Source: Myxococcota bacterium
GTDB taxonomy: Bacteria > Myxococcota_A > UBA9042 > PHBI01 > JAWLBL01
Assembly (NCBI GenBank): GCA_041687695.1
Contig: JAWLBL010000019.1
Coordinates: 64,001-128,000, forward strand
DNA: 64,000 bases
Direction of reading: 5' to 3'
Made by a program: the position numbers and the translations under genes. Shown one piece after another: positions 43,838-64,000 of the stretch. Position 1 is the stretch's first letter. Each line of letters opens with the position of its first letter. The notes under the pieces were generated by a model that did not search any database, was not told where the DNA came from, and was given only the letters and a program-made list of their open reading frames with translations.

Positions 43838-44416
43838 ATGAAGAAGGGCAGCAACCTCGACAAGCTCAAGGATCTCATGGGCATGGTCGACAAGAAGTTC
43901 GGCAAGGGGACCATCATGAACATGGACGATCAGGACAGCGCCAAGGTGAAGGTGTTCTCGACGGGCTCGCTGGGCCTCGACGCGGCGCTGGGCGTGGGCG
44001 GCCTGCCGGTCGGGCGCGTCATCGAGATCTACGGGCCCGAGTCCTCGGGCAAGACGACCCTGTGCCTGCACGCGGTCGCCGAGGTGCAGCGCGCGGGCGG
44101 GACCGCGGCGATCATCGACGCCGAGCACGCCCTGGATCTGTCGTACGCCGCGTCCCTGGGCGTGGACACCTCGCGCATGCTCGTCAGCCAGCCCGACTGC
44201 GGCGAGCAGGCGCTCGAGATCGCCGAGATGCTGACCCGCAGCGACGAGATCGACCTCGTGGTCGTGGACTCCGTGGCCGCCCTGACGCCTCGCGCCGAGA
44301 TCGAAGGCGAGATGGGCGACAGCCACGTCGGCCTGCAGGCCCGCCTGATGAGCCAGGCCCTGCGCAAGCTGACCGGCTCGGCCAGCAAGCACGGGACGAC
44401 CGTCATCTTCATCAAC
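43838..44416 (+). pseudogene. recA: 5' part of recA (193 codons), interrupted by an inserted element; the frame reads on 36 non-RecA residues to a stop at 44527
   Basis: [91 protein letters not shown]. The expected QxRxKIG...GGxALKFY is absent. Confidence 0.93.
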
Positions 44417-44682
44417 GAAAACCGTGGGTCTGGAAGATGGTTGGGACTCCACCGTTCTCCGGTTTCGGCTGGTCGTCTAACCCGCGCAGTCGATTGCGCG
44501 ACCCGATCCCACTACGATCGGTGGTGACCGAGCCCAACCTCGACCCTGTCAACCCAACGAACCGTAACCCCCCGAAAGGAATACCAAGGGCTATCGGGGT
44601 CATGAGGGTGAACTTGACACCGTCACCCAGGCCGGGGTTCTTGGCCCCCATGCGTGGATGAGGAGAGAGGAGCCTCCAGTCG

Positions 44683-45138
44683 ATGACCAACGAAGAGCCC
44701 AGACTTGATCCGCTATCTCCGATTCAGAGAAGCGAGCGGATGTCAAGGGTTCGTTCGGGGAACACGAAGCCCGAGCTCGTGGTCCGCCGCATGGTTCATG
44801 CGATGGGGTACCGCTACCGCATCCACGGCAAGCGCGGGAAGACGCGACTTCCTGGCTCGCCCGACCTGGTCTTCGGTCCGAGGAGGAAGGTCGTCTTCGT
44901 GCATGGGTGCTTCTGGCATCGGCACGAGGGATGCCCCAACGACCGTCCGCCGAAGTCGCGCCAGGACTTCTGGCTCCCCAAGCTCGAGGCCAACCGTCAA
45001 CGCGACGAGGTCAACCTCAAGCTCCTGTGCGAGCTGGGGTGGGAGAGCCTGGTGGTATGGGAGTGCGAGCTGAAGAACCTTCCCGCTCTGGAGGAGAGGC
45101 TTCGGACCTTCATCGAAGGGAAAGCTGGTCGAGCATGA
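44683..45138 (+). CDS. vsr: Very short patch repair endonuclease
   Basis: RSERMSRVRSGNTKPE, LPGSPDLVF, VFVHGCFWHRH, FWLPKLEANRQRD, WESLVVWECE. Confidence 0.93.
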   Translation: MTNEEPRLDPLSPIQRSERMSRVRSGNTKPELVVRRMVHAMGYRYRIHGKRGKTRLPGSPDLVFGPRRKVVFVHGCFWHRHEGCPNDRPPKSRQDFWLPKLEANRQRDEVNLKLLCELGWESLVVWECELKNLPALEERLRTFIEGKAGRA

Positions 45139-46334
45139 GAGCGGTCGAGTTGTTTGCGGGCGCGGGCGGTCTGGGGATCGGCACCGGTCGAGCGGGCTTC
45201 AAGCACGAGGTGGTGGTCGAGTGGGACCACGACGCCTGCGAGACGGTGCGCCACAACCAGCGGCGCCAGGTGCCTGACGTCCAGGGGTGGTCGGTCTTCG
45301 AGGGCGACGTACGGGCCTTCGACTTCGGGACCGTCGCGCCAGGCGTAACGCTGGTTTCGGGCGGTCCGCCCTGTCAGCCCTTCAGCCTGGGCGGCAAGCA
45401 TCGCGCCTTTAAGGACTCGAGGGACATGTTCCCGATGGCGGCCGAGGTCGTGCGTCAGCTGCGACCGGAAGTCTTCATCTTCGAGAATGTCAAGGGTCTT
45501 CTTCGAGAGGCCTTCTCGACCTACTTCGGCTACGTCATCCTCCGGCTCACTTATCCCGAGATGGTTCGCAAGGATCGAGAGGAGTGGCAGGACCACCTGG
45601 CCCGGCTCGAGCGACACCACACGGGCCCGCGACATGATGATGGTCTCCACTACCGGGTGGTCCACCAGCTCCTGAACGCGGCCGACTTCGGTGTTCCGCA
45701 GAGTCGGGAGCGGGTCTTCATCGTCGGGTTCAGGTCGGACCTACAGATGGAGTGGTCCTTCCCTCGAGCGACGCACTCGGCCGAGGCCCTGCTCCACAGC
45801 CAGTGGGTGACCGGCGAGTACTGGGACCAACACAAGATCTCGAAGAAGCGCCGACCTCAGCAGCCGACCCGGTACGCCGGCCGCATCACGCGCCTGAAGT
45901 CCACCGAGCCCGCCTGTCTTCAGTCGAGGTGGCTGACGGTTCGCGACGCCATCTGCGACCTGCCCGACCCTGAGCGCGAACCGCTGCTGGCTCAAGGAGT
46001 GCTGAACCACCGGTTCAACCCTGGAGCTCGGTCGTACCCAGGCCACACGGGCTCGCCTTGGGACTGGCCAGCCAAGACCCTGAAGGCGGGTGACCACGGA
46101 GTTCCGGGTGGTGAGAACATGCTGGCCCGAGAGGACGGCACGGTCCGGTACTTCACTGTCCGGGAGTCGGCGAGGCTCCAGACGTTCCCGGACAACTACG
46201 AGTTCCAGGGCTCGTGGTCGGAGGCGATGCGCCAGCTGGGCAACGCCGTCCCGGTCAAGCTCGCCCAAGCGGTCGCCGACTCGGTTCGATCCCACCTAGA
46301 GGATCGGAAAGCGGGTGGTCGAGGTGAGGCGTGA
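45135..46334 (+). CDS. C5 DNA cytosine methyltransferase
   Basis: Motif I LFAGAGG, IV GGPPCQPFS, VI FENVKGL, VIII QSRERVF, IX RESARLQTFP, X QLGNAVP; ATGA overlap with vsr. Confidence 0.95.
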   Translation: MRAVELFAGAGGLGIGTGRAGFKHEVVVEWDHDACETVRHNQRRQVPDVQGWSVFEGDVRAFDFGTVAPGVTLVSGGPPCQPFSLGGKHRAFKDSRDMFPMAAEVVRQLRPEVFIFENVKGLLREAFSTYFGYVILRLTYPEMVRKDREEWQDHLARLERHHTGPRHDDGLHYRVVHQLLNAADFGVPQSRERVFIVGFRSDLQMEWSFPRATHSAEALLHSQWVTGEYWDQHKISKKRRPQQPTRYAGRITRLKSTEPACLQSRWLTVRDAICDLPDPEREPLLAQGVLNHRFNPGARSYPGHTGSPWDWPAKTLKAGDHGVPGGENMLAREDGTVRYFTVRESARLQTFPDNYEFQGSWSEAMRQLGNAVPVKLAQAVADSVRSHLEDRKAGGRGEA

Positions 46335-46935
46335 ACCCGTCTTCAACCCGCTGGACAAGCGACACCTGGGCGAGAGCGTAGCCGAGGCGACGCTTCATCG
46401 GCCAGTCGGACCTCTTCCGCCCGAGGAGCCGTTCATCGCGGCGGGCGTGTATGCGATCTACTACGCTGGCGACTTTCCGGTTTACGAGCGCATCGCCGAG
46501 CGGAACCGAGAGGGGCGGTTCGAGGTCCCGATCTACGTCGGCAAGGCAGTGCCGGCTGGTGCTCGACGAGGCGGGTTCGGGCTCGGTGCTGACCCTGGAC
46601 AGGTCCTGTTCCGACGCTTGTGCGAACATGCCGAGTCCATCAGGGCGACACCAACTCTGGACATCGATGACTTCTACTGCCGGTACCTGGCGGTCGACGA
46701 CATCTGGATTCCGCTCGCGGAGTCAATGCTGATTGAGATGTTCCAGCCCCTCTGGAACCGGGTGGTCGACGGGTACGGGAACCACGACCCTGGACGCGGG
46801 CGACACGGCCAACAACGGTCCGCGTGGGACGTACTCCATCCTGGGCGGGTCTGGGCCGATAGGCTTCAGCCCGGCCGGGACATGGTCGACATCATCATGG
46901 ACATCAACGCCTACGTCGCAGGCAGAGGTTGGTAA
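46324..46935 (+). CDS. Eco29kI-family GIY-YIG type II restriction endonuclease
   Basis: GVYAIYY...PIYVGKAVPAG, LAESMLI, PLWNRVVDGYGNHDPGRGR, SAWDVLHPGRVWA. Confidence 0.88.
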   Translation: MRREPVFNPLDKRHLGESVAEATLHRPVGPLPPEEPFIAAGVYAIYYAGDFPVYERIAERNREGRFEVPIYVGKAVPAGARRGGFGLGADPGQVLFRRLCEHAESIRATPTLDIDDFYCRYLAVDDIWIPLAESMLIEMFQPLWNRVVDGYGNHDPGRGRHGQQRSAWDVLHPGRVWADRLQPGRDMVDIIMDINAYVAGRGW

Positions 46936-46937
46936 GC

Positions 46938-47432
46938 ATGCCAGCAGAAGAAGCAGGGCTACATCCTGCGCTGATTGCGGCCCTCATCTCAGCGGGAGTT
47001 ACGCTGTTTGTTGGTCCTCTGACTGCCGCATTCGTGACTCGTCGCGCTAACGGAAAGGCCCGAACGGCTGATCTGACTTTGCGATTATATGAGAGATACG
47101 CGGCCATATTGCCCGATCTCGCGGTGATCGTATCGGCGATGCGGGACCAGAACCTGACACCAGAGACATACGAGAAGTACCTTCATACGCGAAAGATTCT
47201 CCTGCTCGAAGAAGTCGGAGCCTTGGTTAAGCACAAGCGCTTGGACGATGCCCTTGTAAAGGAGCTGTTTCGCCAGCCGGTGAAGAAGGACGTCGTCCCC
47301 TGGCTCGAGGAAAAGACCGACGGCTACAAGATCGATATCAAACTCGGTGAGCAGAGAAGGGAAAGGTTCAAGATTCTCGGTCGAACTGTCGGTGTCCAAC
47401 TACAGTTCCCGGCAGTAGGGGCTGCAGAGTAG
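46938..47432 (+). CDS. Membrane-anchored hypothetical protein (DUF4760-like)
   Basis: N-terminal TM helix; LLLEEVGALVKHKRLDDALVKELF; lower-GC codon usage. Confidence 0.5.
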   Translation: MPAEEAGLHPALIAALISAGVTLFVGPLTAAFVTRRANGKARTADLTLRLYERYAAILPDLAVIVSAMRDQNLTPETYEKYLHTRKILLLEEVGALVKHKRLDDALVKELFRQPVKKDVVPWLEEKTDGYKIDIKLGEQRRERFKILGRTVGVQLQFPAVGAAE

Positions 47433-47474
47433 GTCGAGTAGCAGGGGCATCGATAGACGAAGGAGCCTTCGGTA

Positions 47475-48287
47475 ATGGAACGTCTATACGCCCGCATCTG
47501 GCTGCACCTCCCGAAGTATGTGGCCGCGATTCTGATCTTCATCGAGGTCGCGATCCTTGTCGGAGGGAACGCGACTTGGGCGTATTCGAGCGCTGCTTGG
47601 GAGTGGTTTCGGGCCAATACTGATGGCGGGACGAGGCTCCTCATACTGTTCTCAAGCGGGCTGGCGATTTGCGGTTTGGGAGTCTTCGTCGCCTTGCTGC
47701 TTCGAGAGGGGCTGGCGGCCGTGACCATAGGCCTCTCGAGGGCGGTGCTGACATCTCGGCCCCGGTGGGTGGCATCATTCCCAGGCGTGCTCTTGCCTCG
47801 CTCCGCCCAGGTGGTTCGGCTCCTCAACAAGGACAAGCAGTTCCTGGTCGACTACGTGGTTGCACGATCGGCGACCCAGCCGGACACATCTCAAGAGCAG
47901 GAGAAGTTTGTCCGGGACCTGATGACCAGAATCTCGAAGTCCCTCATGAAACCAGAGCATCACGAGTTCATCGCGGAACTCGCGCATGCCACGAGCTTGA
48001 CCCAGGACCAGCGCAAGTACGAACTGCTTGAAGACCAGATGCGCACGTTCGAGATGTTCGGCGCGGCCTTGCTGCTCTACGTCTGGATTTCGGCGCTGGG
48101 TTATCCTGGGGCAGCGCGAAGCACGGCAGGCGCTCTACTCGTTTTCGTCCTGCTCTGCCTGCTGATAGCCGCTTGGATGCGTCTACGGCGCAGGCTGGTG
48201 CGGGTGCTGGCCTGGGCGTACATCGAGATCTTCGTCGTGGCCGAGGGCGCCGACATCGAAGATCGAGAAGGCGAGGGCCCTCTCTGA
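47475..48287 (+). CDS. Hypothetical membrane protein (about 4 TM helices)
   Basis: AAGGAG RBS; two N-terminal and two C-terminal hydrophobic segments around a soluble region. Confidence 0.65.
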   Translation: MERLYARIWLHLPKYVAAILIFIEVAILVGGNATWAYSSAAWEWFRANTDGGTRLLILFSSGLAICGLGVFVALLLREGLAAVTIGLSRAVLTSRPRWVASFPGVLLPRSAQVVRLLNKDKQFLVDYVVARSATQPDTSQEQEKFVRDLMTRISKSLMKPEHHEFIAELAHATSLTQDQRKYELLEDQMRTFEMFGAALLLYVWISALGYPGAARSTAGALLVFVLLCLLIAAWMRLRRRLVRVLAWAYIEIFVVAEGADIEDREGEGPL

Positions 48288-48293
48288 AGAAGC

Positions 48294-48701
48294 TTACTCC
48301 TCAGGCTCCGTCAGCTTCTTCCTGACCTTGGTCAGCGCCAGGTCGATCGCGGCGTCAATCCTCATCTGAGCACGCTGGTCAGCTCTCACGTGCCGCAGGT
48401 GACCGTTCTGATACACCTCGTTGGCCAACGCGACCCGGCCCATCAGTGAGTCGACCGCGTCCTCGATCGAGTGGAGCGAGGCCGGCGTCGTGACCATCTC
48501 GATCTCAGGGTCGTACTCGAAGCAGGTGTGCTGGTCCGGTCCGTCGAAGGCGTCGATCCACTCGGGCGGTGGGGTGCGGGAGAGCTTGATGGCCAGCAGG
48601 ACGTTGAAGCCGTCGTAGACAGGAGCGCTGTAGAGCTCGCGGTCGATGGGCTCGATCTTCACGTCGTCAGCGATCAGGGTGATGGGTGTCCAGGTCGACA
48701 T
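48294..48701 (-). CDS. Hypothetical protein
   Basis: GGAG RBS before ATG 48701; globular composition. Confidence 0.55.
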   Translation of the reverse strand: MSTWTPITLIADDVKIEPIDRELYSAPVYDGFNVLLAIKLSRTPPPEWIDAFDGPDQHTCFEYDPEIEMVTTPASLHSIEDAVDSLMGRVALANEVYQNGHLRHVRADQRAQMRIDAAIDLALTKVRKKLTEPEE

Positions 48702-48881
48702 GGTGGACTCCATTGTTCAGTGCGTGTTCGGCATCGATATGGTCCGAATGTGACTCGGCTGAGTAGCCAAGGCAAACTGTAGTCGCACTGGCTCCGCAGA
48801 CCAACGCCTTCGATGGGCGCGGCTGCTTGCATCTCAGGAAGTCTCTCCTCCGTTCCAAGGAACGGGACTACCCATCCACAA

Positions 48882-49385
48882 TCACTTCTTGATAACGTCC
48901 CTTTCCACTTCGTCCGCTGCAGCAGATACCTCCGTCAAGTAAAAGCTCGGAAGCTCCTCGTTTGCGAACGTGACTTCTTGCCCGTCTTCAATTCGGGATG
49001 TGGTGGTTCCATATGAAATCACTACCTTCGAGCGAGTACCGGTTGCCGCTGGAGTGAGCGAAGTTGGCCGTGGTGGGCTCGAATCGAGCTTCTGTTTGAG
49101 CGCTTCGTATCGCAGTTCAAGTTCCATCAGCTTAGTCTTTTCGTTGCTTCGCTTGCTAAAATCTGCCCTGATTGCGCGAGCAATCCCGGTAGAAATCAAG
49201 CTGGCCGACACCGCAGCAAAGATGATGGCCAATTCGACCAGCGACTTCGGAGCGCCCTCACCGGAAACTGTCCCGCCATACACCAGGAATGTGGTGCCGA
49301 CTATCGCCAATATCGGGACCACGCCACCAATTATTCCGATACCGGCTGCAAGTAAGTTGATTTGAAGCGGAGTGGACGGTCTCAT
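48882..49385 (-). CDS. Hypothetical 2-TM plus coiled-coil protein
   Basis: Two hydrophobic helices then KTKLMELELRYEALKQKL; ATG overlaps the upstream stop. Confidence 0.55.
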   Translation of the reverse strand: MRPSTPLQINLLAAGIGIIGGVVPILAIVGTTFLVYGGTVSGEGAPKSLVELAIIFAAVSASLISTGIARAIRADFSKRSNEKTKLMELELRYEALKQKLDSSPPRPTSLTPAATGTRSKVVISYGTTTSRIEDGQEVTFANEELPSFYLTEVSAAADEVERDVIKK

Positions 49386-49858
49386 TTAAGCATCCTACGG
49401 AGCAGTGCCTTCAGGAAATCCACGAGACCGCCGTAAAAGAGTCCCTTCACGAGGGCCATGCTGAGGCTCTCGCCGGCCAAGGCCGCGACAATCGGGCCAG
49501 CGGTCATGCCCGAAAAGGAGCCGACAAGCAAGTCATGGAGCAACCCTTCAGGCTCGGTCTTGGCGAGCCGGGCTGTGACAGCCTTGAGCCCCCGAGGGAA
49601 GAAGGCGTCAAGGATCTGATCCGTACGCTTGACATGGTCGTTGATCTTCGCATGCAGCGCGTCGATCTCCTGGGGTGAGGCGGCTGTAGTGAGATCGTCC
49701 CTCAACTGGTCGATGTCCGAATCGATCTGATCGAGCACAAAACTTTGCTCGGGCGAAGCCTTACGGCGCGCTTCGTTCAGCCGACGTCTCAGTCCGCTGA
49801 GCGCCGTGCGGCCTTCATCCACCTTCGTGACGGGCCTTGGTCTAGCCGGAACTGTCAT
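49382..49858 (-). CDS. Hypothetical coiled-coil protein with hydrophobic C-terminus
   Basis: Heptad segment LDQIDSDIDQLRDDL; C-terminal glycine-rich hydrophobic hairpin. Confidence 0.5.
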   Translation of the reverse strand: MTVPARPRPVTKVDEGRTALSGLRRRLNEARRKASPEQSFVLDQIDSDIDQLRDDLTTAASPQEIDALHAKINDHVKRTDQILDAFFPRGLKAVTARLAKTEPEGLLHDLLVGSFSGMTAGPIVAALAGESLSMALVKGLFYGGLVDFLKALLRRMLK

Positions 49859-50086
49859 GGTCGGGCAACCGATCGTCCATGCCCATCGGGTCGTGCCAGC
49901 CGCTCCCCGCGTGCTGGCACGTACCACCGCCCCTCGGTGCTGGTGCGATCCTTACCAAGAACTCGGCTCGACGCAAGCGACCCGCCACGGCGAGCCCGCG
50001 CAATCGGATTGCGCGACCGGAGACTTGACTAACGCGGGCATCCGTGATCCGGTCGGACGTCTCGATCACGATCACGGAGGCTCAAC

Positions 50087-51055
50087 ATGGTCCCCCCCTA
50101 CCTGCTCCCGATCCTGCTCTTCCTTGGTTCCGACCTAGACCACGTTGTATCGCATGATCCTGCGACGCACCTCTGCCGGGAAGGAGGGGAGCCTAGGCAG
50201 TACCCTCTTGAGGGCAAGAGGGACGCGATACATGCATGTATCAAGGAAGCGACTGTGAAGCGACACAGCTGTCCTGCCAAGACCGAGAAGCGGGTGAGCT
50301 ACGATCCTCAGGACGGGACCTTCGGGGTGTGGTGCGCAGATGATCGAGGACGTCGCCAGGGGCTCGAGGTCTCCTGGGCGGTCGACCATCAGCGCCGTTG
50401 GGAGTTCGAGTGGAAGGACGATCATAACCTGGTGCGGAGGTGGTGGAAGGACGGCCACCTCACGGCGATCGACTGTTTCGACGAGCACCGGAACGAAGTC
50501 CTGTGCCCCTGCCCGAAGGGAACCGAGAAAGTCTCGGATGGCGACCTATCTACTGAGTGGTGCGCTGATCGTCGCGGGAGGCGGACCGGGCCGATCGTCA
50601 CCTGGAGCGCTGGCAAGGGGGACGCCAAGTTCATCGCCGAGTCGGGCTACTACCTGAACGACAAGCGAGATGGCCTGTGGACCAGCTACACCTTCCTGGA
50701 AGGTAGGCTGACGTCGGCTGGCCACTACCGGGCGGGGAAGAAGGAAGGTCTGTGGCGCACCTTCCACGAGGACGGCTCAGTTGAGTGGGAGGCCACCTAC
50801 TCGCGTGGTCGATTCGAGGGAGTCATGCGCAAGTGGCACGCCAACGGCCAGCTCGCGAAGGAGCGGAGCCATCGTAGAGGCAAGATCGTAGGGACGGTAC
50901 GGACCTGGCATGAGAACGGGCAGCTCGCTTCCGAGGTGATGGTCCGCAAAGGTCGAGCCCACGGGCAGCGACGCTACTACGATGAGGACGGAGTGCTGAT
51001 CAGGACCGAGTGCTGGGTTGGCGGTCGGCAGGCGCCGTGTAAGCTTGAACCGTGA
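50087..51055 (+). CDS. MORN-variant repeat protein (YwqK-antitoxin-like)
   Basis: GGAGG RBS; repeats GKKEGLWRTFHEDG, EGVMRKWHANGQL, GTVRTWHENGQL, HGQRRYYDEDG. Confidence 0.75.
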   Translation: MVPPYLLPILLFLGSDLDHVVSHDPATHLCREGGEPRQYPLEGKRDAIHACIKEATVKRHSCPAKTEKRVSYDPQDGTFGVWCADDRGRRQGLEVSWAVDHQRRWEFEWKDDHNLVRRWWKDGHLTAIDCFDEHRNEVLCPCPKGTEKVSDGDLSTEWCADRRGRRTGPIVTWSAGKGDAKFIAESGYYLNDKRDGLWTSYTFLEGRLTSAGHYRAGKKEGLWRTFHEDGSVEWEATYSRGRFEGVMRKWHANGQLAKERSHRRGKIVGTVRTWHENGQLASEVMVRKGRAHGQRRYYDEDGVLIRTECWVGGRQAPCKLEP

Positions 51056-51079
51056 TAGGACGTGGATACCGGTCCAAAG

Positions 51080-52145: not shown

Positions 52146-52273
52146 CTTTGACTCTGAGGAGGAACTTGTCACCCGTGACCGGAGGAGGCTACTCTCGTCG
52201 AGTAGACAAAGAAAAACCCCGGCAGGCTGCTTTGGTCGGTCGCCTACCGGGGTCAAAAGGAAAAGAAACTGAT

Positions 52274-52996
52274 ATGAAGAATACGGTCGCGCGTGTCGGC
52301 AGTCCAGCCTGCGCTTCGATTCAAAGAGACTTCAGCAAGGTGCCCTGGACCACGACGTTGATCCCTGAGGACCTGCTCGACTGGGCCGATGAGGACAAGG
52401 CCCGTGTTACAGCGTTCGCATTGGCCGCGCTGCTGTACTGTTCGAGTCGGGGCGGCGAGGTCACGAGATGCGTCGCGACGTCGGCCGAACTGCTAGGGAT
52501 CAGCAAGGCGACCAGTTGGCGAGCGGTCTCAATGCTCAAGGAGATCGGCATCGCTCGCGACGAGACCGGGACGTGGCACGGGATGCGCGTGCCCACTCGA
52601 GAATCCATCAGCGGCTGGCTGGCCATCCCGAGTGAGATCGTCGTCGACCCTCGCCGCAAGCCCATCGATATCATCTGGCTCGCGCGCTTGCTCCGCTTGT
52701 GCGAGCAGGAGAGCCAGGCAGCTGGGGGAGAGGACCGCCGCGAAATGGTTCACCCGCGCGCATGGGTCCTGAGGTCGCAGTACGCCGTCGCGACCAAGCT
52801 GGGCACCTCAAGGAACACCACCCACAAGGCGATCCAGAGGCTGGCCGAACTCGGCTACGTGGACGTGCGCGGACAGGGGGTGAACGTACAGCCCCACATG
52901 CCCCGGCAGCTCGGGCTCGTCGGTGGGATCGTCCAGGCCCTGCGCGGTCAGGCCGACGTTGTCCGGCTTGAGGATTGGCGGCGGCATGAGTCGTAA
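52274..52996 (+). CDS. Double winged-HTH protein, putative replication initiator
   Basis: Two HTH motifs, SAELLGISKATSWRAVSMLKEIG and SQYAVATKLGTSRNTTHKAIQRLAELGYV; immediately downstream of the iterons. Confidence 0.65.
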   Translation: MKNTVARVGSPACASIQRDFSKVPWTTTLIPEDLLDWADEDKARVTAFALAALLYCSSRGGEVTRCVATSAELLGISKATSWRAVSMLKEIGIARDETGTWHGMRVPTRESISGWLAIPSEIVVDPRRKPIDIIWLARLLRLCEQESQAAGGEDRREMVHPRAWVLRSQYAVATKLGTSRNTTHKAIQRLAELGYVDVRGQGVNVQPHMPRQLGLVGGIVQALRGQADVVRLEDWRRHES

Positions 52997-53019
52997 GAAG
53001 TGCAATCGATTGCGCGAGT

Positions 53020-53328
53020 TTGATCGGGGATGATGAGTGCATCCGGTATCGGGAAACCCCACACCGGAGGCCTCCCGTGGACGACGTCAATCGCACCCGC
53101 ATGCGCGCGCTGATCGACCTTTGGAAGCGCAGCCGCGCACGCAGAAACCCAAAGCAACTCCGAGTGCTGATGCTCATGAAGAGGACCGGTGTACGCTGTC
53201 GCAAGTGCCGAAAGGAGATCCCTGTCGGGGACCGGGTGTTGTGGGATCCACGCGACAAGTCGTGTGAACATGAGCTCTGCCCAAATGTGATTGACTTCGT
53301 GGCCTGGCGAGAGGAACGGAATAGATAA
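53020..53328 (+). CDS. Small zinc-ribbon protein
   Basis: CRKC...IPVGDRVLW...HELC. Confidence 0.5.
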   Translation: MIGDDECIRYRETPHRRPPVDDVNRTRMRALIDLWKRSRARRNPKQLRVLMLMKRTGVRCRKCRKEIPVGDRVLWDPRDKSCEHELCPNVIDFVAWREERNR

Positions 53329-53548
53329 CCGCTCGAAAGCTGCGTATCTGTTGACGACTACGCCATCCGCCTGCGATCATTAGTCGTCGACTTCGGTCAT
53401 TGGGGATGCGTTAGTCCATGAGGTGGCGTATGGCGTGGGTGTTGGCTTGGCTTTGCTTGACCTGCGCGCCGCCTGGTATGGCCGACGTCGACCAGCAGCT
53501 TCGCAGCATCGAGTCACGGCTCGAGCTGCTCGCTCAGGAACTCGGGCG

Positions 53549-54052
53549 ATGAGCAGCAAGTGGTGCAGCGGAGCCTGTGGTGAGCTACTCCCGCACTCCC
53601 ATTTTGCGCGGGACAAGAGTAAGAAGGATGGCCTGTCGTCCCGGTGCCGGGCCTGCGCCAAGGCAGCGACCAAGGCCTGGACCCAGGCAAACCCAAAGCG
53701 AGCCGCCGCAGCCAAGCGTCGGGCCTACGAGCGCGGCAAGAAGCACGTGGTCTATCGGCTGACCCACGTCCCGACCGGCCAGTACTATGTGGGCTCGACG
53801 CACCAGCCCACCTCGCGCGAGCAGAGCCACCGCTACGCGCTACGAACCGCCACTCACTGGAACCCTGGCGTGCTGGCCATCATCGCCCGAGAGGGCTACC
53901 ACGCGGACGACTGGACGTTTGAGGTGGTCGCGGTGGGATCGTCGGCGGAGGAGGTCCGGAGGCTGGAGACGCAGGTCATTCAGGACCTGGAGCACGACTC
54001 CTTGGTCTTGAATCGGATGGCTGGTGGCGGCCCGATGGCGAGAGCCCACTGA
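53549..54052 (+). CDS. GIY-YIG nuclease with N-terminal zinc finger (free-standing homing-endonuclease-like)
   Basis: KWCSGACGE...KDGLSSRCRAC; VVYRLTHVPTGQYYVGST...REQSH; FEVV...LE...LN. Confidence 0.75.
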   Translation: MSSKWCSGACGELLPHSHFARDKSKKDGLSSRCRACAKAATKAWTQANPKRAAAAKRRAYERGKKHVVYRLTHVPTGQYYVGSTHQPTSREQSHRYALRTATHWNPGVLAIIAREGYHADDWTFEVVAVGSSAEEVRRLETQVIQDLEHDSLVLNRMAGGGPMARAH

Positions 54053-54098
54053 TGGTGCGCTCGGACGTCAGTCTCCCTCGGGCTGCGGCAATACGGCC

Positions 54099-54731
54099 AT
54101 GAGCGCGTTCGAGGCGCAGGTCTCATGGCAGGCGTACAGGACATGGGGGGCTGTCGACCCACAGGTCTGGTGGCCATCCACCGCTCGGTCGTCGGATGCC
54201 GAGCTTGAGCGCCTCGGCTGGGCGATGTCACGTGTGACGCTGCGACATCGTGCAGCCCTAGCGCCGCTCCCGCAGGCGGCGATCGCGCGCGAACTGGGCG
54301 TCAGTCAGCCGACGGTCTGCGCGCGTCGTCGGGTGACCTTGGCCGGCCTGAGGAAGCTCCTAAGCTACCGGGGCGACCCAGACCGCGATGCCGCCATCGT
54401 GGTCGAGATGGCGAGGGGCGAGGATCTGGTGACCAGGCTGGCGGTCAGGACATGGGCCGCGACTGGTCGTCGTGCTCCAGTCGCAGGGGTGCTCGACGAG
54501 GCCTACACACCCGACCATCGACGCGCGAGCGAGGCCTTGGTCGAGTGGCTGGCGGACCACGCCTCGAACGCGACGGTTCGTCGTCTTGCGGGAGTGCATT
54601 TGCCGGCAGGTCCGGTGCTCATCGTGGGGCCTGACGTGGATGCATGGTCTCGATGGGATGCGGCCCGGAGTACGGCAGCCGAGCGACTCCTGGCGTGGAG
54701 GTCCATGGCCGAGGACAGCAGGGCGGCATGA
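54099..54731 (+). CDS. HTH protein with sigma70 region-4-like motif
   Basis: LPQAAIARELGVSQPTVCARRRVTLAGLRKLL; lies just upstream of the packaging genes. Confidence 0.55.
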   Translation: MSAFEAQVSWQAYRTWGAVDPQVWWPSTARSSDAELERLGWAMSRVTLRHRAALAPLPQAAIARELGVSQPTVCARRRVTLAGLRKLLSYRGDPDRDAAIVVEMARGEDLVTRLAVRTWAATGRRAPVAGVLDEAYTPDHRRASEALVEWLADHASNATVRRLAGVHLPAGPVLIVGPDVDAWSRWDAARSTAAERLLAWRSMAEDSRAA

Positions 54732-55555: not shown

Positions 55556-55602
55556 GCCCTTGGACGGGGCCGGGTGAACCGGTGGGGTCGGGAAGACCCT
55601 GG

Positions 55603-57075
55603 TTGGCGCAGCGGAGACGAAAGCGAGCGGACCTTCGGCATTTCAACGCCGACACGCTCCAGTGCGACTTCGTCCGGATCTTCTGGGGCGACAAGGCCGA
55701 GAAGGCGCGTCAGCAGGTCCGCTTCGTGGTCGCGAGCGGGCGCCGGTACCAGCTTGCGTTGTGCGGGCGCGGGTTCGGGAAGAGCTGGTGTCTGGCGCTG
55801 AAGTGTCTCTGGCTCGCGCTGATCAACCCGGGCGTCGACGGCGCCATCCTCGGCCGGACCTATCAGGAGGCGAAGTCCGGGCCGCTCCTGACCAACCTGC
55901 TCGCGCACCTTGAGACGTTCGCGCAGGTGACGGGAATCGACCTCGTCGCCTCGTTCAACAAGGGCGAGAAGTGCCTGACCCTCACCAACGGGTCTCGAAT
56001 CCACATCCGTGGGTTCGAGACGATGGCAAAGCTCCGCTCGCTGTCGCTGGGGTGGGCGGTGGCCGACGAGCTCGACTGGAGCCAGTCGGTTGCGGCCGAC
56101 GTATTCGACTCGCTCCAGAAGCTGATTCGCGAGCCCTGCCCGATGCCCTGCCTGGCCCTCGGGACCTCCCCGGCCGGGATCTCTGGCATCGGCGGCCTGT
56201 TCCTCTCGCGCCTTAACGGGAATGACCCGGTCGAGGCAGCGCGCTACTTCGTGATCACCGGGACCGCCGAGGACAACCCGCACCTGGCCGGGACCGACTA
56301 CCTCGACACGATCCGACGCGGCAGCTCCAAGCGGAGCTGGATGCAAGAGGGCCTGGGGCAGGTCCTGACCGCGTCCGAGGCCGTCTTCCCCGAGTTCGAC
56401 TTGGCGAAGCACCGCATCCCGTGGACCTGGGACAAGTCGCTGGACTACCTGGTCGGGGTCGACTGGGGGACCTCGGCCGCGTCGGCGCTCTTCGTCCAGG
56501 TGCAGAAGGACGGGACGTGGATCGTGGCCGACGAGATTCGGGCGGTCGAGGGCTCGTATCAGCAGTTCCGTGACGCGCTGAGCCGCAAGGTCCGGTCCAT
56601 CGGGTACCTCCCGAGCTTGCTGGCGGCGGACAAGGCCGTGAAGTCGGAGAACGCCTGGGCGCGCGAGCACTTCACCGCGAAGTGCTGGGTGGCGACGCTG
56701 GACGGCGGTGCCGAGCAAGAGCTGGTCTACGGGCTCGAGTGCCTGCGGGCGCTGCTTGACCCAGCAGCGGACGACGAGCCGCCGCGTCTCCTGTTCGCCG
56801 ACTCCCTGGCCTACGACCCGCATGATCCGAACCCCGGAATCGTGGGCTCCCTCCTGTCCTACTCGTACATGAGGGGGCGGAATGGGGTGCTGACGAACAT
56901 CCCGATCAAGTCAGCGACCGACCCGTACAAGCACGCGGTTGACGCGCTCCGTTACCCGATCGTCGCGACGGCGAAGAAGCCTCAGTTCCACGGCGGACGC
57001 GCGCTGCCCTTTGCGGCGGCGGCGTCCCGTATCGACTTCAAGGCGTCCTACGAGCCCAAGGAGTTCGCTGCATGA
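55603..57075 (+). CDS. Terminase large subunit
   Basis: Walker A CGRGFGKS, Walker B WAVADE, nuclease motifs VGVDWG and KHAVDALRY; TTG at 55603 chosen as start from the conserved leader motif. Confidence 0.9.
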   Translation: MAQRRRKRADLRHFNADTLQCDFVRIFWGDKAEKARQQVRFVVASGRRYQLALCGRGFGKSWCLALKCLWLALINPGVDGAILGRTYQEAKSGPLLTNLLAHLETFAQVTGIDLVASFNKGEKCLTLTNGSRIHIRGFETMAKLRSLSLGWAVADELDWSQSVAADVFDSLQKLIREPCPMPCLALGTSPAGISGIGGLFLSRLNGNDPVEAARYFVITGTAEDNPHLAGTDYLDTIRRGSSKRSWMQEGLGQVLTASEAVFPEFDLAKHRIPWTWDKSLDYLVGVDWGTSAASALFVQVQKDGTWIVADEIRAVEGSYQQFRDALSRKVRSIGYLPSLLAADKAVKSENAWAREHFTAKCWVATLDGGAEQELVYGLECLRALLDPAADDEPPRLLFADSLAYDPHDPNPGIVGSLLSYSYMRGRNGVLTNIPIKSATDPYKHAVDALRYPIVATAKKPQFHGGRALPFAAAASRIDFKASYEPKEFAA

Positions 57076-58550
57076 ACCTCATCGGCAACCTGTTCCGGCG
57101 CCTGACGAGGGTCCGCCGCTACGAGATCGATTCCCGCGACCGGGGGGCGCACCGGTCCAACAGCCTCCGTCTCGAGGCGTTCAGGGCCGGCGACTTCGCG
57201 ACCGCCATGGATGGCGTTTTGGAGGCCATCTTCAGCGACACGGACGGGCTGCAGCCGAGGTACGCGCCGCTGATCCAGCGCATCGCGTCCGACGGGGCGA
57301 GTCAGTACGTGCGTGCGCCGCGCCGGCGGTTCGACGGGGTGTCGCCGACGCAGGCTGAGAAGCTGGCGAGCGTGTACCGCGCTTCGCGGGTCGACCGCGT
57401 CCTGTTGAAGGGGCAGCAGAAGAGCGTCCCGCAGAACGCCGTGCTCATCACGGCGGACCCGACGCCCGACTTGGACCGCCTGCAGCTCCAGTCGTGGGTG
57501 CCCGGCGAGGTGCTCGACATCGTGATGCCGAACGCGCTCGAGACCGACATCCGTCGGGCTGTTCGGGTGGAACTCGAGTGCCCGGTCGCGAAGGATGCGA
57601 AGGGCAACCTGGTGATCGGGAAGCGGGTCTACACGCCCACGGAGGCCTACACGGAGCATCCGAGCGGGGAGGGGGAGCCGCTTCGGGTCGGCATCTTCCG
57701 GCCCGACCTGACCCACCCGTTCAGGTCCGTCCCGATCGTGTTGGTGCGGCTGGAGGAACCGCGTCGCGGTGAAGTCCTGCCGGCGTTGCGTCTGGACCTG
57801 TTGGCGTTGAACGAAGCCTTGTGCGCGGCGCTGTCGGATCAAGAGTTCATCGCTCGGACCCAGTCGGCGGGCGAGCGCATCCTGACCGGGCCGGGCGCCA
57901 TGCAGGCGGTGACAGCGCTCTATGACGCGCAGAACAACCCCGAGCTGGCCGATGTGGGGAGCGCGTTGGCCGCCGACGCCATCAAGGCGTTTGACGGCGA
58001 GGACCTCGAATACAAGGTGGTCAACTCGAACCCGGACCTCGAGGGCTACCGAACCACGGTCGGTTCGATGGTGGAGCTGGTCGCCCGGTACGGGTACGCG
58101 CAGCCCGAGGGGTTGCTCGGCAGCACTGGCATCACGGGCGCGGCGAAGGAGGCCGAACGTCTCGAGGTGGTCGAACACCAGCGCCGGATGGAGGGGATCT
58201 GGCGCGACGCCGAACAGGACCTCCTGACGCTGATCGTCCAGGTGCTGAACGCGGGGCAGGTGGCGTTGCGGCTGCCCGAGTCCGCGACCGTGGAGGTGGA
58301 TCACCTGTATGTGGCCCCGAGGGCGAACGACCTGCAGACCGCGCAGGCCCGAGAGATCGATCACGCGCGCGGCCACTCGTCGGAGATCGAAGACGTGGCG
58401 CGCGCCGAGGGCCTGACGCTGGAAGAGGCCGAGCGGCTCATTCGGTGGCGGCTGCAGAAGCGGCGGGAGCTACTCGAGCTTGCGGGTCCGCAGACCCCGC
58501 AGGGGCTGAACCGCGTGGCCGACCTGAGCGCGAAACAGCTGCCCGGGTAG
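57072..58550 (+). CDS. Putative portal protein
   Basis: 492 aa directly after terL (ATGA overlap); TGAAKE...WRDAEQDLLTLI portal-like segment. Confidence 0.7.
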   Translation: MNLIGNLFRRLTRVRRYEIDSRDRGAHRSNSLRLEAFRAGDFATAMDGVLEAIFSDTDGLQPRYAPLIQRIASDGASQYVRAPRRRFDGVSPTQAEKLASVYRASRVDRVLLKGQQKSVPQNAVLITADPTPDLDRLQLQSWVPGEVLDIVMPNALETDIRRAVRVELECPVAKDAKGNLVIGKRVYTPTEAYTEHPSGEGEPLRVGIFRPDLTHPFRSVPIVLVRLEEPRRGEVLPALRLDLLALNEALCAALSDQEFIARTQSAGERILTGPGAMQAVTALYDAQNNPELADVGSALAADAIKAFDGEDLEYKVVNSNPDLEGYRTTVGSMVELVARYGYAQPEGLLGSTGITGAAKEAERLEVVEHQRRMEGIWRDAEQDLLTLIVQVLNAGQVALRLPESATVEVDHLYVAPRANDLQTAQAREIDHARGHSSEIEDVARAEGLTLEEAERLIRWRLQKRRELLELAGPQTPQGLNRVADLSAKQLPG

Positions 58551-58598
58551 CGGCACCGATCCTATCGGACCACCCATGGTGAACCGGTGGAGGGTCTC

Positions 58599-59144: not shown

Positions 59145-59146
59145 CG

Positions 59147-59512: not shown

Positions 59513-59586
59513 CCCGAAGGGGTCGCTCCCTCTGGACGGGGAGTCGTCGAGAACCAGGTGGGGTCATTCGTTAGGAGTGACCCAAA

Positions 59587-60471
59587 GTGCCGACCAACAA
59601 CGATTTCTCGCACCTCCTGGAGACCGTCGTCGAGATGGTGGAGGACGGACTCGACGCAACTCGCCTCGAGTTCGAGGACATCTGCCAGATCAAGACGGTC
59701 GACTCCCCGACCCTGCAGCTCTCGGACCTCTACGGCGTCGGGCACTACTCGACGACCGTCGCCAGCCCGAACGCCGACGCGATGTCGTCGTCGAGCAAGG
59801 TCCTGTCGAGCGTGTCCCGCGAGAAGAAGCTGATCTTCTTCCGCAAGGACGTGCGCGACCGTCCGGACCTGCCGCAGCACCTGGCGAAGCAGGTGATCCA
59901 GGCGGCGACGAGCACGGTCCGCAACCTGTTCTGGGCGGGCTTCGCCGGTCTCCCGACGCTGGCCCACCCCGACGAGGCCTACGCGGGCGCGGGCAAGTAC
60001 TTCGTCGACTCGTTCAGCGAGACGGTCACGCAGTCGAACAAGCTCACCGTGAGCCTGTCGGCGGACAGCCTCGCGCTCGCGCGGACGCGCCTCCGCGCCT
60101 ACAAGAACAAGAAGGGCCTGCCGCTCTCGCTGGACGTGTCGTCCAGCAACCTGGCGCTGGTCGTCCCGTCGACGATGCTGACGGAGGCGATGGACCTGGT
60201 CGCGGTGCGCGAGCCGACCTACGACGGCACCGGGCTGACCACCGGCACCTTCCACGGGATGCAGGTGATCGACTCGCCGTACCTGTCGGACAGCGACGAC
60301 TTCGGCGTGATCCACAAGCCGACGACCCCGCTGATCATGTGGATGCGGAAGGCGCCCGACCTGCGGATCGAGCCGATCCCGGGCACCAACACCGTCTCGC
60401 TCATCAGCGAGATGGAGTGCGTGTTCGGCGTCGACCCGTTCGAGGCCGGCATCGTCATGTCCGTGGTCTGA
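59587..60471 (+). CDS. Major capsid protein (Mu gpT-like)
   Basis: AGGAG RBS; LSADSLALARTRLRAYKNKKGLPL...LVVPSTM...VIDSPYLSD resembles the Mu-like gpT C-terminal half. Confidence 0.65.
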   Translation: MPTNNDFSHLLETVVEMVEDGLDATRLEFEDICQIKTVDSPTLQLSDLYGVGHYSTTVASPNADAMSSSSKVLSSVSREKKLIFFRKDVRDRPDLPQHLAKQVIQAATSTVRNLFWAGFAGLPTLAHPDEAYAGAGKYFVDSFSETVTQSNKLTVSLSADSLALARTRLRAYKNKKGLPLSLDVSSSNLALVVPSTMLTEAMDLVAVREPTYDGTGLTTGTFHGMQVIDSPYLSDSDDFGVIHKPTTPLIMWMRKAPDLRIEPIPGTNTVSLISEMECVFGVDPFEAGIVMSVV

Positions 60472-60492
60472 GCGAGCGCAGGGGCGGCCACG

Positions 60493-61065
60493 GTGATCGG
60501 GATACACTACAGCTGGGCCAAGTCCATCACGGACGACGAGCGCCGGTTCACGATCCCGCTCTCCGTGGCCACGTCCTGGCTCGCGAAGTCCATCCGGGCG
60601 CGCGTGTCCAACCGGGGCGAGACGGCCGACGGCGGCCAGTTCTCGCCCCTGGTTGCTCGCAGCCGGACCAAGCCGACCCGGAAGGTCCGGCGGTTCTACA
60701 AGTCGGGCGAGCTGTGGCGGAGCCTGCACGTTCACGCCACGCAGCCCGGCCGCGTTCGGGTCATGTTCCGGGGGAAGCGGACCCAGCGCGGGAAGTCGGC
60801 GCTGACGAACCCTCAGCTCGCCTGGTTGCTGCAGCGGCCGGAGCGAGCCGAGCTACTGGCCCCCAGCCGGCGCGAGGAAGCGCAGTTCGTTGAGCACCTG
60901 GCGACCCTGGCGCCGGGCCAGTGGCTGGACCGGACGGCGAAGATGGCCGGGGACTTCCGGCAGCGGCAGCAAGATGACCGGGCCGCTCGGGCGGTCGCGA
61001 AGGCGCAGAAGCTGCGGGCGCAGCTGCGGGCGCTCGGGGTGGAGATCGTAGGGGAGGCGGCGTGA
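60493..61065 (+). CDS. Putative virion morphogenesis/neck protein
   Basis: Basic protein after the capsid gene; G.TADG.QFSPL...FYKSGELWRSL pattern. Confidence 0.5.
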   Translation: MIGIHYSWAKSITDDERRFTIPLSVATSWLAKSIRARVSNRGETADGGQFSPLVARSRTKPTRKVRRFYKSGELWRSLHVHATQPGRVRVMFRGKRTQRGKSALTNPQLAWLLQRPERAELLAPSRREEAQFVEHLATLAPGQWLDRTAKMAGDFRQRQQDDRAARAVAKAQKLRAQLRALGVEIVGEAA

Positions 61066-61955
61066 TGGCGGTGGAGCTGCTTCAGTCGCGAGACTGCCCG
61101 GTCAGCTACGTGCCGACGGTCCGCCCGGCTTCGGCCGAGCTCGTCCTGGTCGACGACTCCGGCGCGGAGGTCGCCAGCCCGGCCGTCACCGTCGACGCGA
61201 TCGGGGCTGGGGGGACCGCCACGATCGCCAGCCTGACCAACCAGGCGACGTTCGAGGTCGACGACGCCACGAACATCCGGCCGGGTCAGCGGCTCTGGCT
61301 GCAGCCTCAGAGCGGGTCCGGGAGCGTGGTGAAGGTGTCGACGGTCAGCGGAACGACCGTCACTGTGGACGGGGCGCCGGCCGCGACGGTCCTCGAGGGG
61401 GACACGCTGCACGGAGCGACGCTCCGCGCGACCGTCTCCGCTTCCGCGCTGGGGATGCGGGGCCTGCACTGGTCGCTTCGGTGGACGATCACGGACGCGG
61501 ACGGACGGGTTACGGTTGAGCAAGAGACCGCGCACGTCGTCCGCCAGCGGTTCCGCGACGCCTGCACGCCCGACGAGGTGTCGCGCTACGTGGGGCAGCT
61601 CTTCCCGGGGATGACGAGGGGCAGGGACGCCGGGTGGTACGCCGACCTGGCCGAGCGCGCGTCAGACCGGGTGCGTCGCTTGCTGCAGGCGAAGGGGTGC
61701 TACCCGCACCTGGCGGGCGACCCGCTGGCGTTCCGTGAGGCGGGGCGCCTGGCGCTGTTGGCGGAGCTGGCGCTGCAGGGGCAGCGGGCGCCGGGGTACC
61801 AAGGGGTCGCGCTCGAGGACATCGACAAGGCGGCGCGGCGCGCGGTCTACGAGGCGGCTGACGGGCTCCAGTGGCACGACCGCAACGACGACGGGGCGGT
61901 CCAGGCGTCGGAGGTCGCGAAGCCGGTGGCCCGGGTGGTGAGGCTGCGACGATGA
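61065..61955 (+). CDS. Putative head-tail connector protein
   Basis: Position; beta-rich N-half and helical C-half. Confidence 0.5.
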   Translation: MAVELLQSRDCPVSYVPTVRPASAELVLVDDSGAEVASPAVTVDAIGAGGTATIASLTNQATFEVDDATNIRPGQRLWLQPQSGSGSVVKVSTVSGTTVTVDGAPAATVLEGDTLHGATLRATVSASALGMRGLHWSLRWTITDADGRVTVEQETAHVVRQRFRDACTPDEVSRYVGQLFPGMTRGRDAGWYADLAERASDRVRRLLQAKGCYPHLAGDPLAFREAGRLALLAELALQGQRAPGYQGVALEDIDKAARRAVYEAADGLQWHDRNDDGAVQASEVAKPVARVVRLRR

Positions 61956-62380
61956 GGGCGAGCGAAGTACGCCGGGCGATCATCGCGGCCGTGGAGGCGA
62001 TCCAGCCCGATCACCGCGCGACACCGGCTGACGTGTTTCGTCACGTCGACCTGGGGCAGATCACCGCCGGGGTGTCGCTCCCGGACCGGTCGTTCTACGT
62101 GGCCCTCGAGTCGCCGCCGCGCGACATGGCGGACATGACGGACAACCTGTTCCAGGTCGGCTACTCGGTTCAGGTGTTCTACGCGGCGTCGCCGACGATC
62201 GATGACCGAATCGGGGCCGACGTGGAGAAGCTGATCTGGGCGCTGCCTCAGATCCCGGCCGGCCACAACGAGGTGGCGTCGGCATCGGTCCTATCGACCT
62301 CGGTTGGTGAGGACGAAGGCGGGATCGATGTCGTCGTCTTGGTCGAGGTGACGTACCGGCTGGACGACCTGTCGGCCTGA
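61952..62380 (+). CDS. Putative tail terminator/completion protein
   Basis: ATGA overlap; 142 aa; SEVRRAIIAAVEAI start and VEVTYR end; directly before the tail tube gene. Confidence 0.55.
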   Translation: MRASEVRRAIIAAVEAIQPDHRATPADVFRHVDLGQITAGVSLPDRSFYVALESPPRDMADMTDNLFQVGYSVQVFYAASPTIDDRIGADVEKLIWALPQIPAGHNEVASASVLSTSVGEDEGGIDVVVLVEVTYRLDDLSA

Positions 62381-62431
62381 GCCCCTTGGACGGGGGCGCG
62401 AAGAACACGGTGGGGTCAGGAGTGACCCCGG

Positions 62432-63640
62432 ATGGCTTACTCGCAGACACGGATCGGCAGGGCTCGGATTCGCCCGCAGACCGATTGGGGCTTCGACAAC
62501 GCGGTGGCTGCGGGGTCGTTCGTCGCCGGGGACACGCTCGGCTGCGAGGTCTGGGTCCCCCAGCTGGTCGAGGAGGCGCTGCGGTCGGAGACCTTCAGGG
62601 GCGCGTTCCACGCCCACCGGGTCGTCGGCGGCTCGCGCAAGGGCGTGCAGATCACCGTCTCCATGCCGGCGCACGGGCTGTCCAGCTCGGCCCCGTCGGG
62701 TGAGCCGACCCGCACGCCGGACATCCTGCTGTTCGAGTCCGCCCTGGGGTTCGGGGCGGCGACGACGGCCGGGTTCGACGCCACCAACCTGGTCGGCGGG
62801 ACCGCTGCGAGCGTTCAGTGGACGGACGCCACCGGGCTGAACCCCGGTCAGGCGCTCCTGATCCCGCTCGCGTCGGGCCACTCGTTCGGGTGGCTGCAGA
62901 CGATCACCCCGGGGACGCCGGAAGAGCTCGTCCTGGTGACGGAGCTGTCGGGGGCTCCGGCGGCGAGCGGTCAGGTGTTTGGGTCCTACGGGGTCGCGCT
63001 GTCGACGGCGCAGTCGGCGCCGCTGAGCCTGCTGTGGGTGGGCTCGCGCGGTGAGCAGATCCGCCTGTACGACGGCGCGGTGAGCCAAGCGCAGCTGACC
63101 CGGGAGCCGTCGGGGCGGCTGATGATCTCGGCGACGCTCCAGTTCGGCGGCTGGATCGTCGACGCCGGTTCCGGGACCGCGCCCGGCCAGTATGCGTTCG
63201 GGCTCCCCGACCTGCCGGCGGCGATCGGGCGCAACGGGGCGCGCGTCATGGTGGACGGGGCGGCAATCCCGCTCTCGAGCTTCGAGCTGAGCATCACCAA
63301 CACGCTCGCCGAGGCCCCGGACATCGGCGCCCGTGAGGGCCTGGGCGCCTACGTGACGACGGACCGCGCGGTCCAGCTGACGGTGACGGGGCGCCAGCCC
63401 GACGTGTCGGCGCTCAGGAGCCCCGGTGACGAGCTCGGGACGGTCCAGGTCGACTGCGGGAACACGCCCGGCAAGGCGCTGAGCCTGCTGATGCCGGCGG
63501 CGGTCGTTCAGGAGTTCGAGCCGCTGCAGGACAGCGAGGGGGTCGTCGGCAACCAGCTGACGCTGGCCCCGGGCAACTACACGGGCGACGGCAGTTCGAC
63601 CGAGCCCGGCAACACCGTCTTCCGCATGGCGTGGAGCTGA
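62432..63640 (+). CDS. Putative major tail (tube) protein
   Basis: Strong RBS; beta-rich; LSSFELSITNTL...TDRAVQLTVT, GNTPGKALSLLMP tail-tube-like segments. Confidence 0.65.
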   Translation: MAYSQTRIGRARIRPQTDWGFDNAVAAGSFVAGDTLGCEVWVPQLVEEALRSETFRGAFHAHRVVGGSRKGVQITVSMPAHGLSSSAPSGEPTRTPDILLFESALGFGAATTAGFDATNLVGGTAASVQWTDATGLNPGQALLIPLASGHSFGWLQTITPGTPEELVLVTELSGAPAASGQVFGSYGVALSTAQSAPLSLLWVGSRGEQIRLYDGAVSQAQLTREPSGRLMISATLQFGGWIVDAGSGTAPGQYAFGLPDLPAAIGRNGARVMVDGAAIPLSSFELSITNTLAEAPDIGAREGLGAYVTTDRAVQLTVTGRQPDVSALRSPGDELGTVQVDCGNTPGKALSLLMPAAVVQEFEPLQDSEGVVGNQLTLAPGNYTGDGSSTEPGNTVFRMAWS

Positions 63641-63641
63641 C

Positions 63642-64000
63642 ATGGCGATCCAGCTGATCCGTAAGACCGACACGGTGGCCCTGGTCTGCACGGCGGACGA
63701 ATCGGTCACCCTCCCCGAGGGCGCCTCGCGCGAGCCGGTCCAGTGGGTGGAGGCGGACAAGTTCCCCCACGGGGCCGACGCGACCGTGGTCACCATCCGT
63801 CCGCTCGTTCACCTCGAGGTCCACGGCCTCGCCGGGAGGGACTTCCAGGAACAGTGCCACCTGGCGGTGAGGGCCGGGCTGGTGAGCCTGTCGGGGGTGG
63901 AGACGCGCGACGAGGCGGTCGACGCTATCCCGTACAAGCTCGCCCCCTCGCTGGGGGCGGCGATCCTCTCCTACACGTTCGGGGCCGTCGACCCTTTCGG
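63642..64000 (+). CDS. Putative tail assembly chaperone, 3'-truncated by the window edge
   Basis: ORF MAIQLIRKTD... open to the window end; follows the tail tube gene; VVTIRPL motif; slippery-type heptamer at 63992-63998. Confidence 0.55.
   Translation, partial: MAIQLIRKTDTVALVCTADESVTLPEGASREPVQWVEADKFPHGADATVVTIRPLVHLEVHGLAGRDFQEQCHLAVRAGLVSLSGVETRDEAVDAIPYKLAPSLGAAILSYTFGAVDPF

Follow-up and report, generated by a model that had tools for sequence, protein, structure and literature searches.

A serine-integrase prophage that splits the accessory recA gene of a two-recA Myxococcota bacterium

RecA can rid a cell of a prophage through recombination, and it is also what usually triggers the induction of prophages. 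In regulated gene integrity, or active lysogeny, exemplified by the Listeria comK prophage, the Bacillus sigK skin element and SPbeta in spsM, a serine integrase mediates the splitting of a gene without replacement and its precise restoration on excision. The myxophages Mx8 and Mx9 encode tyrosine integrases and use tRNA-type sites. According to sections of PMC6070905, attP of both phages lies inside the integrase gene, which acquires a new 3' end on integration. The recA gene itself is the target of the Vibrio recA mobile element (RME), described in passages of three papers (PMC4405046, PMC4334540, PMC7820670) as a genomic island of ~20-33 kb that is inserted site-specifically at nt 491-494 and carries a phage-integrase/XerS-type recombinase, a full replacement recA and, in V. 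cholerae S24, umuDC; precise excision restoring recA was shown for S24. Prophages and islands also disrupt comK, comYC, comGA, comFA, ssbB and comM, and excerpts of PMC12378983, PMC12637031 and PMC10083194 propose that they thereby block chromosomal curing. Here we describe a prophage in one of two recA genes carried by a Myxococcota bacterium (GenBank assembly GCA_041687695.1). The window analysed is a stretch of 64,000 nucleotides (positions 64,001 to 128,000 of contig JAWLBL010000019.1, called C19 below; a window position is the C19 coordinate minus 64000). Our favoured reading, to which we assign a probability of about 0.6, is that a temperate tailed phage with a large serine integrase uses the IFIN/Q codon of the accessory recA as attB, and that the resulting knockout lowers curing of the prophage.

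The 5' half of this recA is canonical as far as ATC TTC ATC AAC (44416) and is followed by unrelated DNA; this confirms the switch that had been noticed in an earlier sequence-only reading of the window. GC content falls at the break from ~0.73-0.75 to 0.58-0.65, as that reading had also remarked, and amounts to 0.671 over the whole element, compared to 0.727 and 0.738 in the flanks. The break had been placed exactly before the Gln of IFINQ. The location stands but the crossover itself can be refined to an AA dinucleotide within the preceding Asn193 codon (recA nt 577-578). Extension along C19, as had been proposed, locates both pieces that were expected outside the window: the 3' half of recA (C19:143717-144190), on the same + strand as the 5' half, and, beside it, a serine integrase. 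The junctions are 35,306 bp apart and both carry the 6-bp core ATCAAC, in agreement with the suggestion that recA is the attB of a prophage. When the element is removed in silico, the halves join into a 348-aa RecA with 0 internal stops and 10/10 checked motifs; precise excision would thus restore an intact frame, as had been anticipated, while in the lysogen the 5' frame runs past the junction to a stop at 44527 (229 aa). Both halves have a host-like GC content at third codon positions (GC3; 0.97 and 0.98). The pairing of this recA with comM also holds: comM lies upstream, with a gap of 92 bp, and the split gene stands between comM and ssb. No promoter or terminator consensus was matched in 41900-44700. 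A translated C-terminal RecA fragment, whose ATG is overlapped here by the integrase stop, was rejected as a feature and is taken as chance because it is not conserved in two other same-strand cases.

A RecA search of the whole genome returned three matches, namely the 5' half (profile positions 3-189), the 3' half (185-261) and a complete copy on contig C27 that is 63.6 % identical to the rejoined protein. None lies inside the element, which indicates that the phage brings no replacement recA. The claim that lysogeny switches recA off hence survives for the split copy but not for the cell, which is not recA-null since the C27 gene is intact.

Like the RME, the element is inserted in recA and its excision restores the frame, here in silico. 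It differs from the RME as portrayed in the passages cited above in having a serine integrase, in being a tailed phage, in entering the Asn codon of IFINQ (nt 577-578), in bringing no replacement and in residing in a two-recA host; integrase class, site and replacement gene all place it outside the RME. With the disruptors of competence genes, as excerpted above, it shares a site-specific hit in a transformation-type cluster and a target left unrepaired; however, comM is intact here and the neighbouring recombinase gene is hit instead. recA does not occur as a target at the 12 of 21 places covered in reviews of competence-gene disruption (PMC12378983, PMC12637031), and neither the main text nor any of 8 supplements of a serine-integrase survey (PMC10083194) contains the word 'recA' (0 matches). 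As in Mx8 and Mx9, in the sections cited, attP is situated within the integrase gene and the tail of the enzyme changes on integration, but the present enzyme is a serine integrase and its target a protein-coding gene. The features in common with regulated gene integrity are the serine integrase, the gene split without replacement and its precise restoration on excision, which is predicted here; those systems excise in a regulated manner without lysis, and no directionality factor was found here. Insertion into recA and disruption of competence genes are thus already known. Among the matches listed in searches of the open-access literature we found no report of a serine-integrase phage family targeting recA, although a catalogue may list one.

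The junctions show that recombination at AA splits recA in the Asn193 codon and parts comM from ssb; the reverse reaction would restore the frames of both recA and the integrase. The rebuilt attP mirrors itself at 13/27 positions about the AA of the Asn codon, the best centre tested. Large serine integrases are expected to use a short core with a central dinucleotide, to have the more symmetric of the two sites in attP and to show a 5-bp offset of half-site motifs between attP and attB. GAAGA is found at position 18 of either attP half-site and at position 13 of the B' half-site. The integrase frame crosses attR (core C19:143717-143722), its last 8 codons being host recA DNA, and is 552 aa long in the integrated state; upon excision it would gain its tail from 44417-44480 and reach 565 aa. 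Integration therefore swaps the tail of the integrase, because attP sits inside its gene. A similar tail is present in 65/119 homologues by a loose pattern; the other ends comprise 22 short ones in AG/SG/TG, 1 in out-of-frame recA and 31 of other kinds. Tails of uncut homologues (P0002-P0120) very often end in LVA or VVA, which integration removes, and which we take to resemble ssrA-type degradation tags. Among 134 further, more distant representatives, available as protein only, the tails gave one weak recA-frame signature.

To what degree the site is a property of the integrase could be assessed from its homologues. A 40-sequence alignment was used to fetch 7 viral, 79 metagenome and 25 genome integrase loci, and 81 loci (6 viral, the first 72 metagenome and 3 genome loci, one of the last three obtained separately; the most distant rows were dropped) entered a survey of tails. 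A complete integrase end was present in 51/81, a number reduced to 42 when 9 identical or near-identical pairs were merged: 17 of the 42, this one included, abut a recA half (two of these calls rest on <100 bases of flank), 6 are cut elsewhere and 19 are uncut or unclear. The 17 are scattered over the integrase tree, with pairwise identities of 29-94 % (median 46 %). In a search of all 138 genomes of the family to which genome G303 belongs, 11 genomes were found to hold a total of 12 integrase copies, of which 5 lie against recA, 4 are uncut, 1 is distant and 2 extend past the end of their contigs. This brings the number of distinct recA-abutting integrases to 20 (17 from the tail survey and 3 from G303's family). 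Three loci have the orientation seen here, while 17 are inverted with the integrase stop on the core. Among junctions selected as recA-adjacent, 5' halves end in ATC AA in 19/19 cases and 3' halves begin with AA in 9/9; for three of the halves so selected (G446 and two in G430), the DNA retrieved contains no integrase. The recA halves that were aligned are free of stops in 19/19 cases. The recA site is a trait of the integrase family and not a one-off, and we hold site-specific integration by a recA-targeting integrase family to be nearly certain. When genome contigs were searched with the integrase, distant relatives only were retrieved, mostly from Bacillota, with best segments at 20-40 %.

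Two of these elements deserve a closer description. In G303 the inserted phage is a different one of 45,367 bp, inverted, having only the integrase in common with ours (39 %), and its ends share only AA; no recA was found in it, its removal joins recA into 344 aa and the second recA is intact. In G486 a reduced element of 16,224 bp retains the integrase and leaves a recA that joins into 351 aa. Besides these, the element (G486:C25, L333) carries a primase-like gene, another gene that resembles a serine recombinase and scattered genes for head and tail, and neither terminase nor capsid was seen among 12 open reading frames (ORFs) scanned. Uncut integrases occur in viral records, with terminal repeats in 2/5 and recA in 0/5, and on phage-gene contigs of G511, in which both recA genes are whole; these fit the free attP state. 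Apparent splits in G003 and G437:C125 were contig ends and that in G016 a frameshift, and none was counted; in G016:C33 (L118) and G388:C25 (L262) there is an apparent frameshift in the comM-linked recA, close to profile position 235. In G430 (C241 and C753; L295, L296) two separate recA 3' halves begin at the same site and that paralog also occurs in the assembly as an unbroken stretch, pointing to mixed strains or repeated integration. An off-target insertion at a look-alike core near a gene start, after the integrase stop, is seen in L175; from a motif, the target is presumably an EVE-domain protein.

Which of the two recA genes is hit was examined with relatives of the same order, none being of the same genus or family. 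In the tree, the split copy clusters with these genomes' second paralog (support 98/97, midpoint root) on a branch of 0.34, not long among its paralogs. The comM-recA-ssb order is uninterrupted in 9/9 same-order genomes fetched, one having a frameshift elsewhere in recA, which suggests that selection maintains the accessory gene. comM also precedes this paralog in a number of further families of the phylum, and the targeted paralog is beside comM in 4/10 metagenome loci checked. Wherever the interrupted recA could be typed it was the accessory paralog, and QLRQKIG is the type of all 3' halves that are visible (9/9). Four of the 41 genomes of G303's genus (G417 counts in the denominator only) have a break at the site, and none of these was in the QIRMKIG copy among the partial matches fetched. 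The neighbours of the C27 gene, the main recA, are by their motifs presumably cinA and alaS. It is preceded by an SOS box, which the split copy lacks, and across the order an SOS-box-like motif precedes 13/14 main copies vs 0/10 accessory copies; the pattern was tuned on main copies, and is uninformative in G303's genus (0/28, 0/8), where it is absent before both. In M. xanthus, an SOS box likewise precedes recA2 and none precedes recA1 in the sections available of PMC7029660 and PMC9705874, and the box-less RecA1 is described in the former as dispensable for growth, yet carrying recombination and LexA cleavage. Neither copy cleanly shows the diagnostic residue, Arg at E. coli position 33 (judged by eye), and M. 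xanthus N-termini were not seen among the matches listed for recA copies of 15 large genomes. The host has comEC and lexA; its two recA genes, the SOS box, a GC content of ~73 % and a size of 8 Mb point to Myxococcota.

Taken together, the phage most likely targets a site that is conserved and whose loss the host survives, and in doing so also disables transformation-linked recombination. By the sequence, integration at AA splits the accessory recA, separates comM from ssb and trims the integrase, and excision would reverse all three. Lysogens would survive because the main recA (cinA-recA-alaS, with its SOS box) stays intact. The lost RecA would be the recombinase of a transformation-type cluster, leading to lower uptake-driven recombination and thus to fewer prophage cures and, if it behaves like M. 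xanthus RecA1, LexA-dependent SOS would drop as well; excision during induction would return recA as a by-product. Avoidance of curing through recA loss is plausible as an inference, and for the further claim, that this loss is selected since it benefits the phage, we see the odds as about even. A number of observations weigh against this account. The junctions are known from the assembly, and excision is a prediction. Some of the homologous integrases have other targets (6/23 cut loci sit at non-recA sites), the symmetry of attP is modest (attB also scored 13/27, at another centre), the 5-bp offset is not clear in G303 and searching viral contigs with the P' arm gave no match. The main recA carries an identical GAAGA half-site, so that the paralog bias may reflect host survival, and the intact main RecA may itself supply recombination. 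No comM match lies near the targeted paralog in G303's genus; the link with transformation is therefore not universal. Orthology with RecA1 (MXAN_1441) is unsupported, an M. xanthus recA1 primer having matched 2/401 genomes, both times in chance non-recA genes. Finally, scans of the element gave no S24 or HTH_3 repressor match, no endolysin match (Pfam, PHROG) and no recognised directionality factor, nor any small gene common to the element and its relatives, and it may therefore be defective.

Several of these points would also be expected if the highly conserved IFINQ codons were simply a neutral landing pad that lets one integrase reach many hosts, insertions in the main copy being lost and those in the spare copy tolerated, while the phage gains nothing further from the knockout. 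Both paralogs have almost the same DNA around the site, the half-site is shared, both orientations occur, other sites are used and the targeted copy is not always beside comM. However, no replacement recA is carried by this element, by that of G303 or in 5/5 viral records, although, according to part of PMC10111431, the target is usually repaired by attP, with exceptions that tend to be regulatory; serine integrases are enriched at competence genes in a passage of PMC10083194; and the accessory gene is uninterrupted in all nine relatives. We regard the landing pad as a doubtful explanation, to be kept in mind nonetheless. The assembly could also be chimeric, or the insertion a chance event in a dead gene: the junction does rest on the assembly, and no same-genus or same-family relative is at hand for comparison. 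Yet both halves lie in order on one contig, in frame and with host-like GC3, the integrase has its tail at the far junction, 19 further integrase loci show the same break and the branch of the split copy is not long among its paralogs. A chimeric assembly is thus very unlikely, and the same is true of a dead gene.

The element might instead serve the host, excision without lysis under DNA damage, competence or development turning the accessory RecA on. The precise restoration of the frame with stop-free halves, the two tail states of the integrase, the absence of a recognised cleavable repressor or endolysin and the G486 element with its restorable recA would all suit such a switch. On the other hand, the element has a set of head and tail genes, there are relatives in the form of complete phage genomes with terminal repeats (2/5 records), and the insertions are sporadic (5/138 genomes in one family), on unrelated phages and not lineage-fixed. 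A host-serving recA switch is possible from the sequence but, in our estimation, quite improbable. A bolder extension of the curing-avoidance reading, which we consider unlikely, is that of a widespread phage clade of two-recA bacteria in which one serine integrase acts as a double switch: integration would turn off the RecA paralog that drives recombination and triggers SOS, and strip the integrase of its conserved tail, excision, possibly without lysis, would restore both, and lysogens would thereby tune, via the host recombinase, how often they are cured and at what threshold they are induced. The 16-kb element of G486 and other reduced copies may be evolving into recA switches run by the host.

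Phages that repeatedly knock out recA without replacing it allow the chromosomal-curing hypothesis to be tested directly at the level of the recombinase, and the split accessory genes are natural knockouts with which to ask why two recA genes are maintained in these bacteria. A further resource is the set of ~20 diverse serine integrases, whose attB has been mapped and is highly conserved. Split recA halves in such genomes should moreover not be recorded as pseudogenes.

Features of the interrupted recA locus and the prophage (window positions unless prefixed C19)
Feature	Position	Strand	Remarks
comM (Mg-chelatase-family helicase)	42156..43745	+	Pfam Mg_chelatase/ChlI/Mg_chelatase_C
Accessory recA 5' half, codons 1-193	43838..44416	+	ATG at 43838
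Prophage, part within window	44411..64000	.	Continues to attR on C19
attL core ATCAAC, central dinucleotide AA at 44414-44415	44411..44416	+	Also at C19:143717-143722
P' arm of attP, also codes the integrase's final 21 residues (ending LRFRLVV)	44417..44480	+	Rejoins integrase upon excision
Vsr, C5 methyltransferase, Eco29kI-family endonuclease (type II restriction-modification cargo)	44683..46935	+	Pfam, PADLOC
Replication-initiator-like helix-turn-helix (HTH) protein, endonuclease VII/GIY-YIG protein, weak sigma70-r4-like protein	52148..54731	+	Pfam, PHROG; sigma70-r4-like a lead only
Terminase large subunit	55582..57075	+	PHROG 2, E 2e-28
Portal protein (SPP1 type)	57072..58550	+	Atlas score 0.98, 10/10 family matches agree
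Major capsid protein candidate	59587..60471	+	Pfam Phage_capsid_4, E 1e-4, below cut-off (weak)
Tail tube protein	62432..63640	+	Pfam Phage_tube_2, over cut-off
Tape-measure-like gene (weak match)	C19:128338-130863	+	Beyond window; tail-region genes alongside
Two DUF4145 / PD-T7-4-like genes	C19:140064-140780 and 141316-142017	-	Before integrase
Large serine integrase	C19:142089-143747	+	Resolvase + Recombinase + Zn-ribbon domains
ssb	C19:144213-144653	+	22 bp past recA stop

For gene content, 42 ORFs were scanned by Pfam, 30 by PHROGs and 16 by PADLOC. The phage gene set announced by the sequence-only reading is borne out by terminase, portal, capsid candidate and tail tube, and, rather than a reduced, skin-like element, this has the look of a tailed prophage with a full virion-making gene set. 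The portal assignment stands without any Pfam or PHROG match. The catalytic and zinc motifs of the integrase are intact; no integrase is present among 25 window ORFs scanned, in keeping with its position beyond the window. A terminase search of viral contigs gave no match, and the phage seems to have no close relative there. No SOS-box match was obtained within the element.

At the left edge of the prophage, a complete-looking restriction-modification set with Vsr is followed by five low-GC ORFs without family match (46929-49927), and this edge (44683-49927) is a possible defence slot. A MORN-repeat-variant protein with an N-terminal hydrophobic stretch is encoded at 50087-51055. The two DUF4145 genes are paralogous (80 % DNA identity over 122 bases), and a 124-aa ORF located between them just before the integrase is a directionality-factor candidate. 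A 164-base stretch without clear gene (C19:138782-138945) matches C19:155447-155607, outside the element, at 85 %, and a neighbouring stretch matches C1:6914-7079 at 71 %. Elsewhere in the genome, a second, distant serine recombinase (29 % identity) is encoded at C24:27179-28153.

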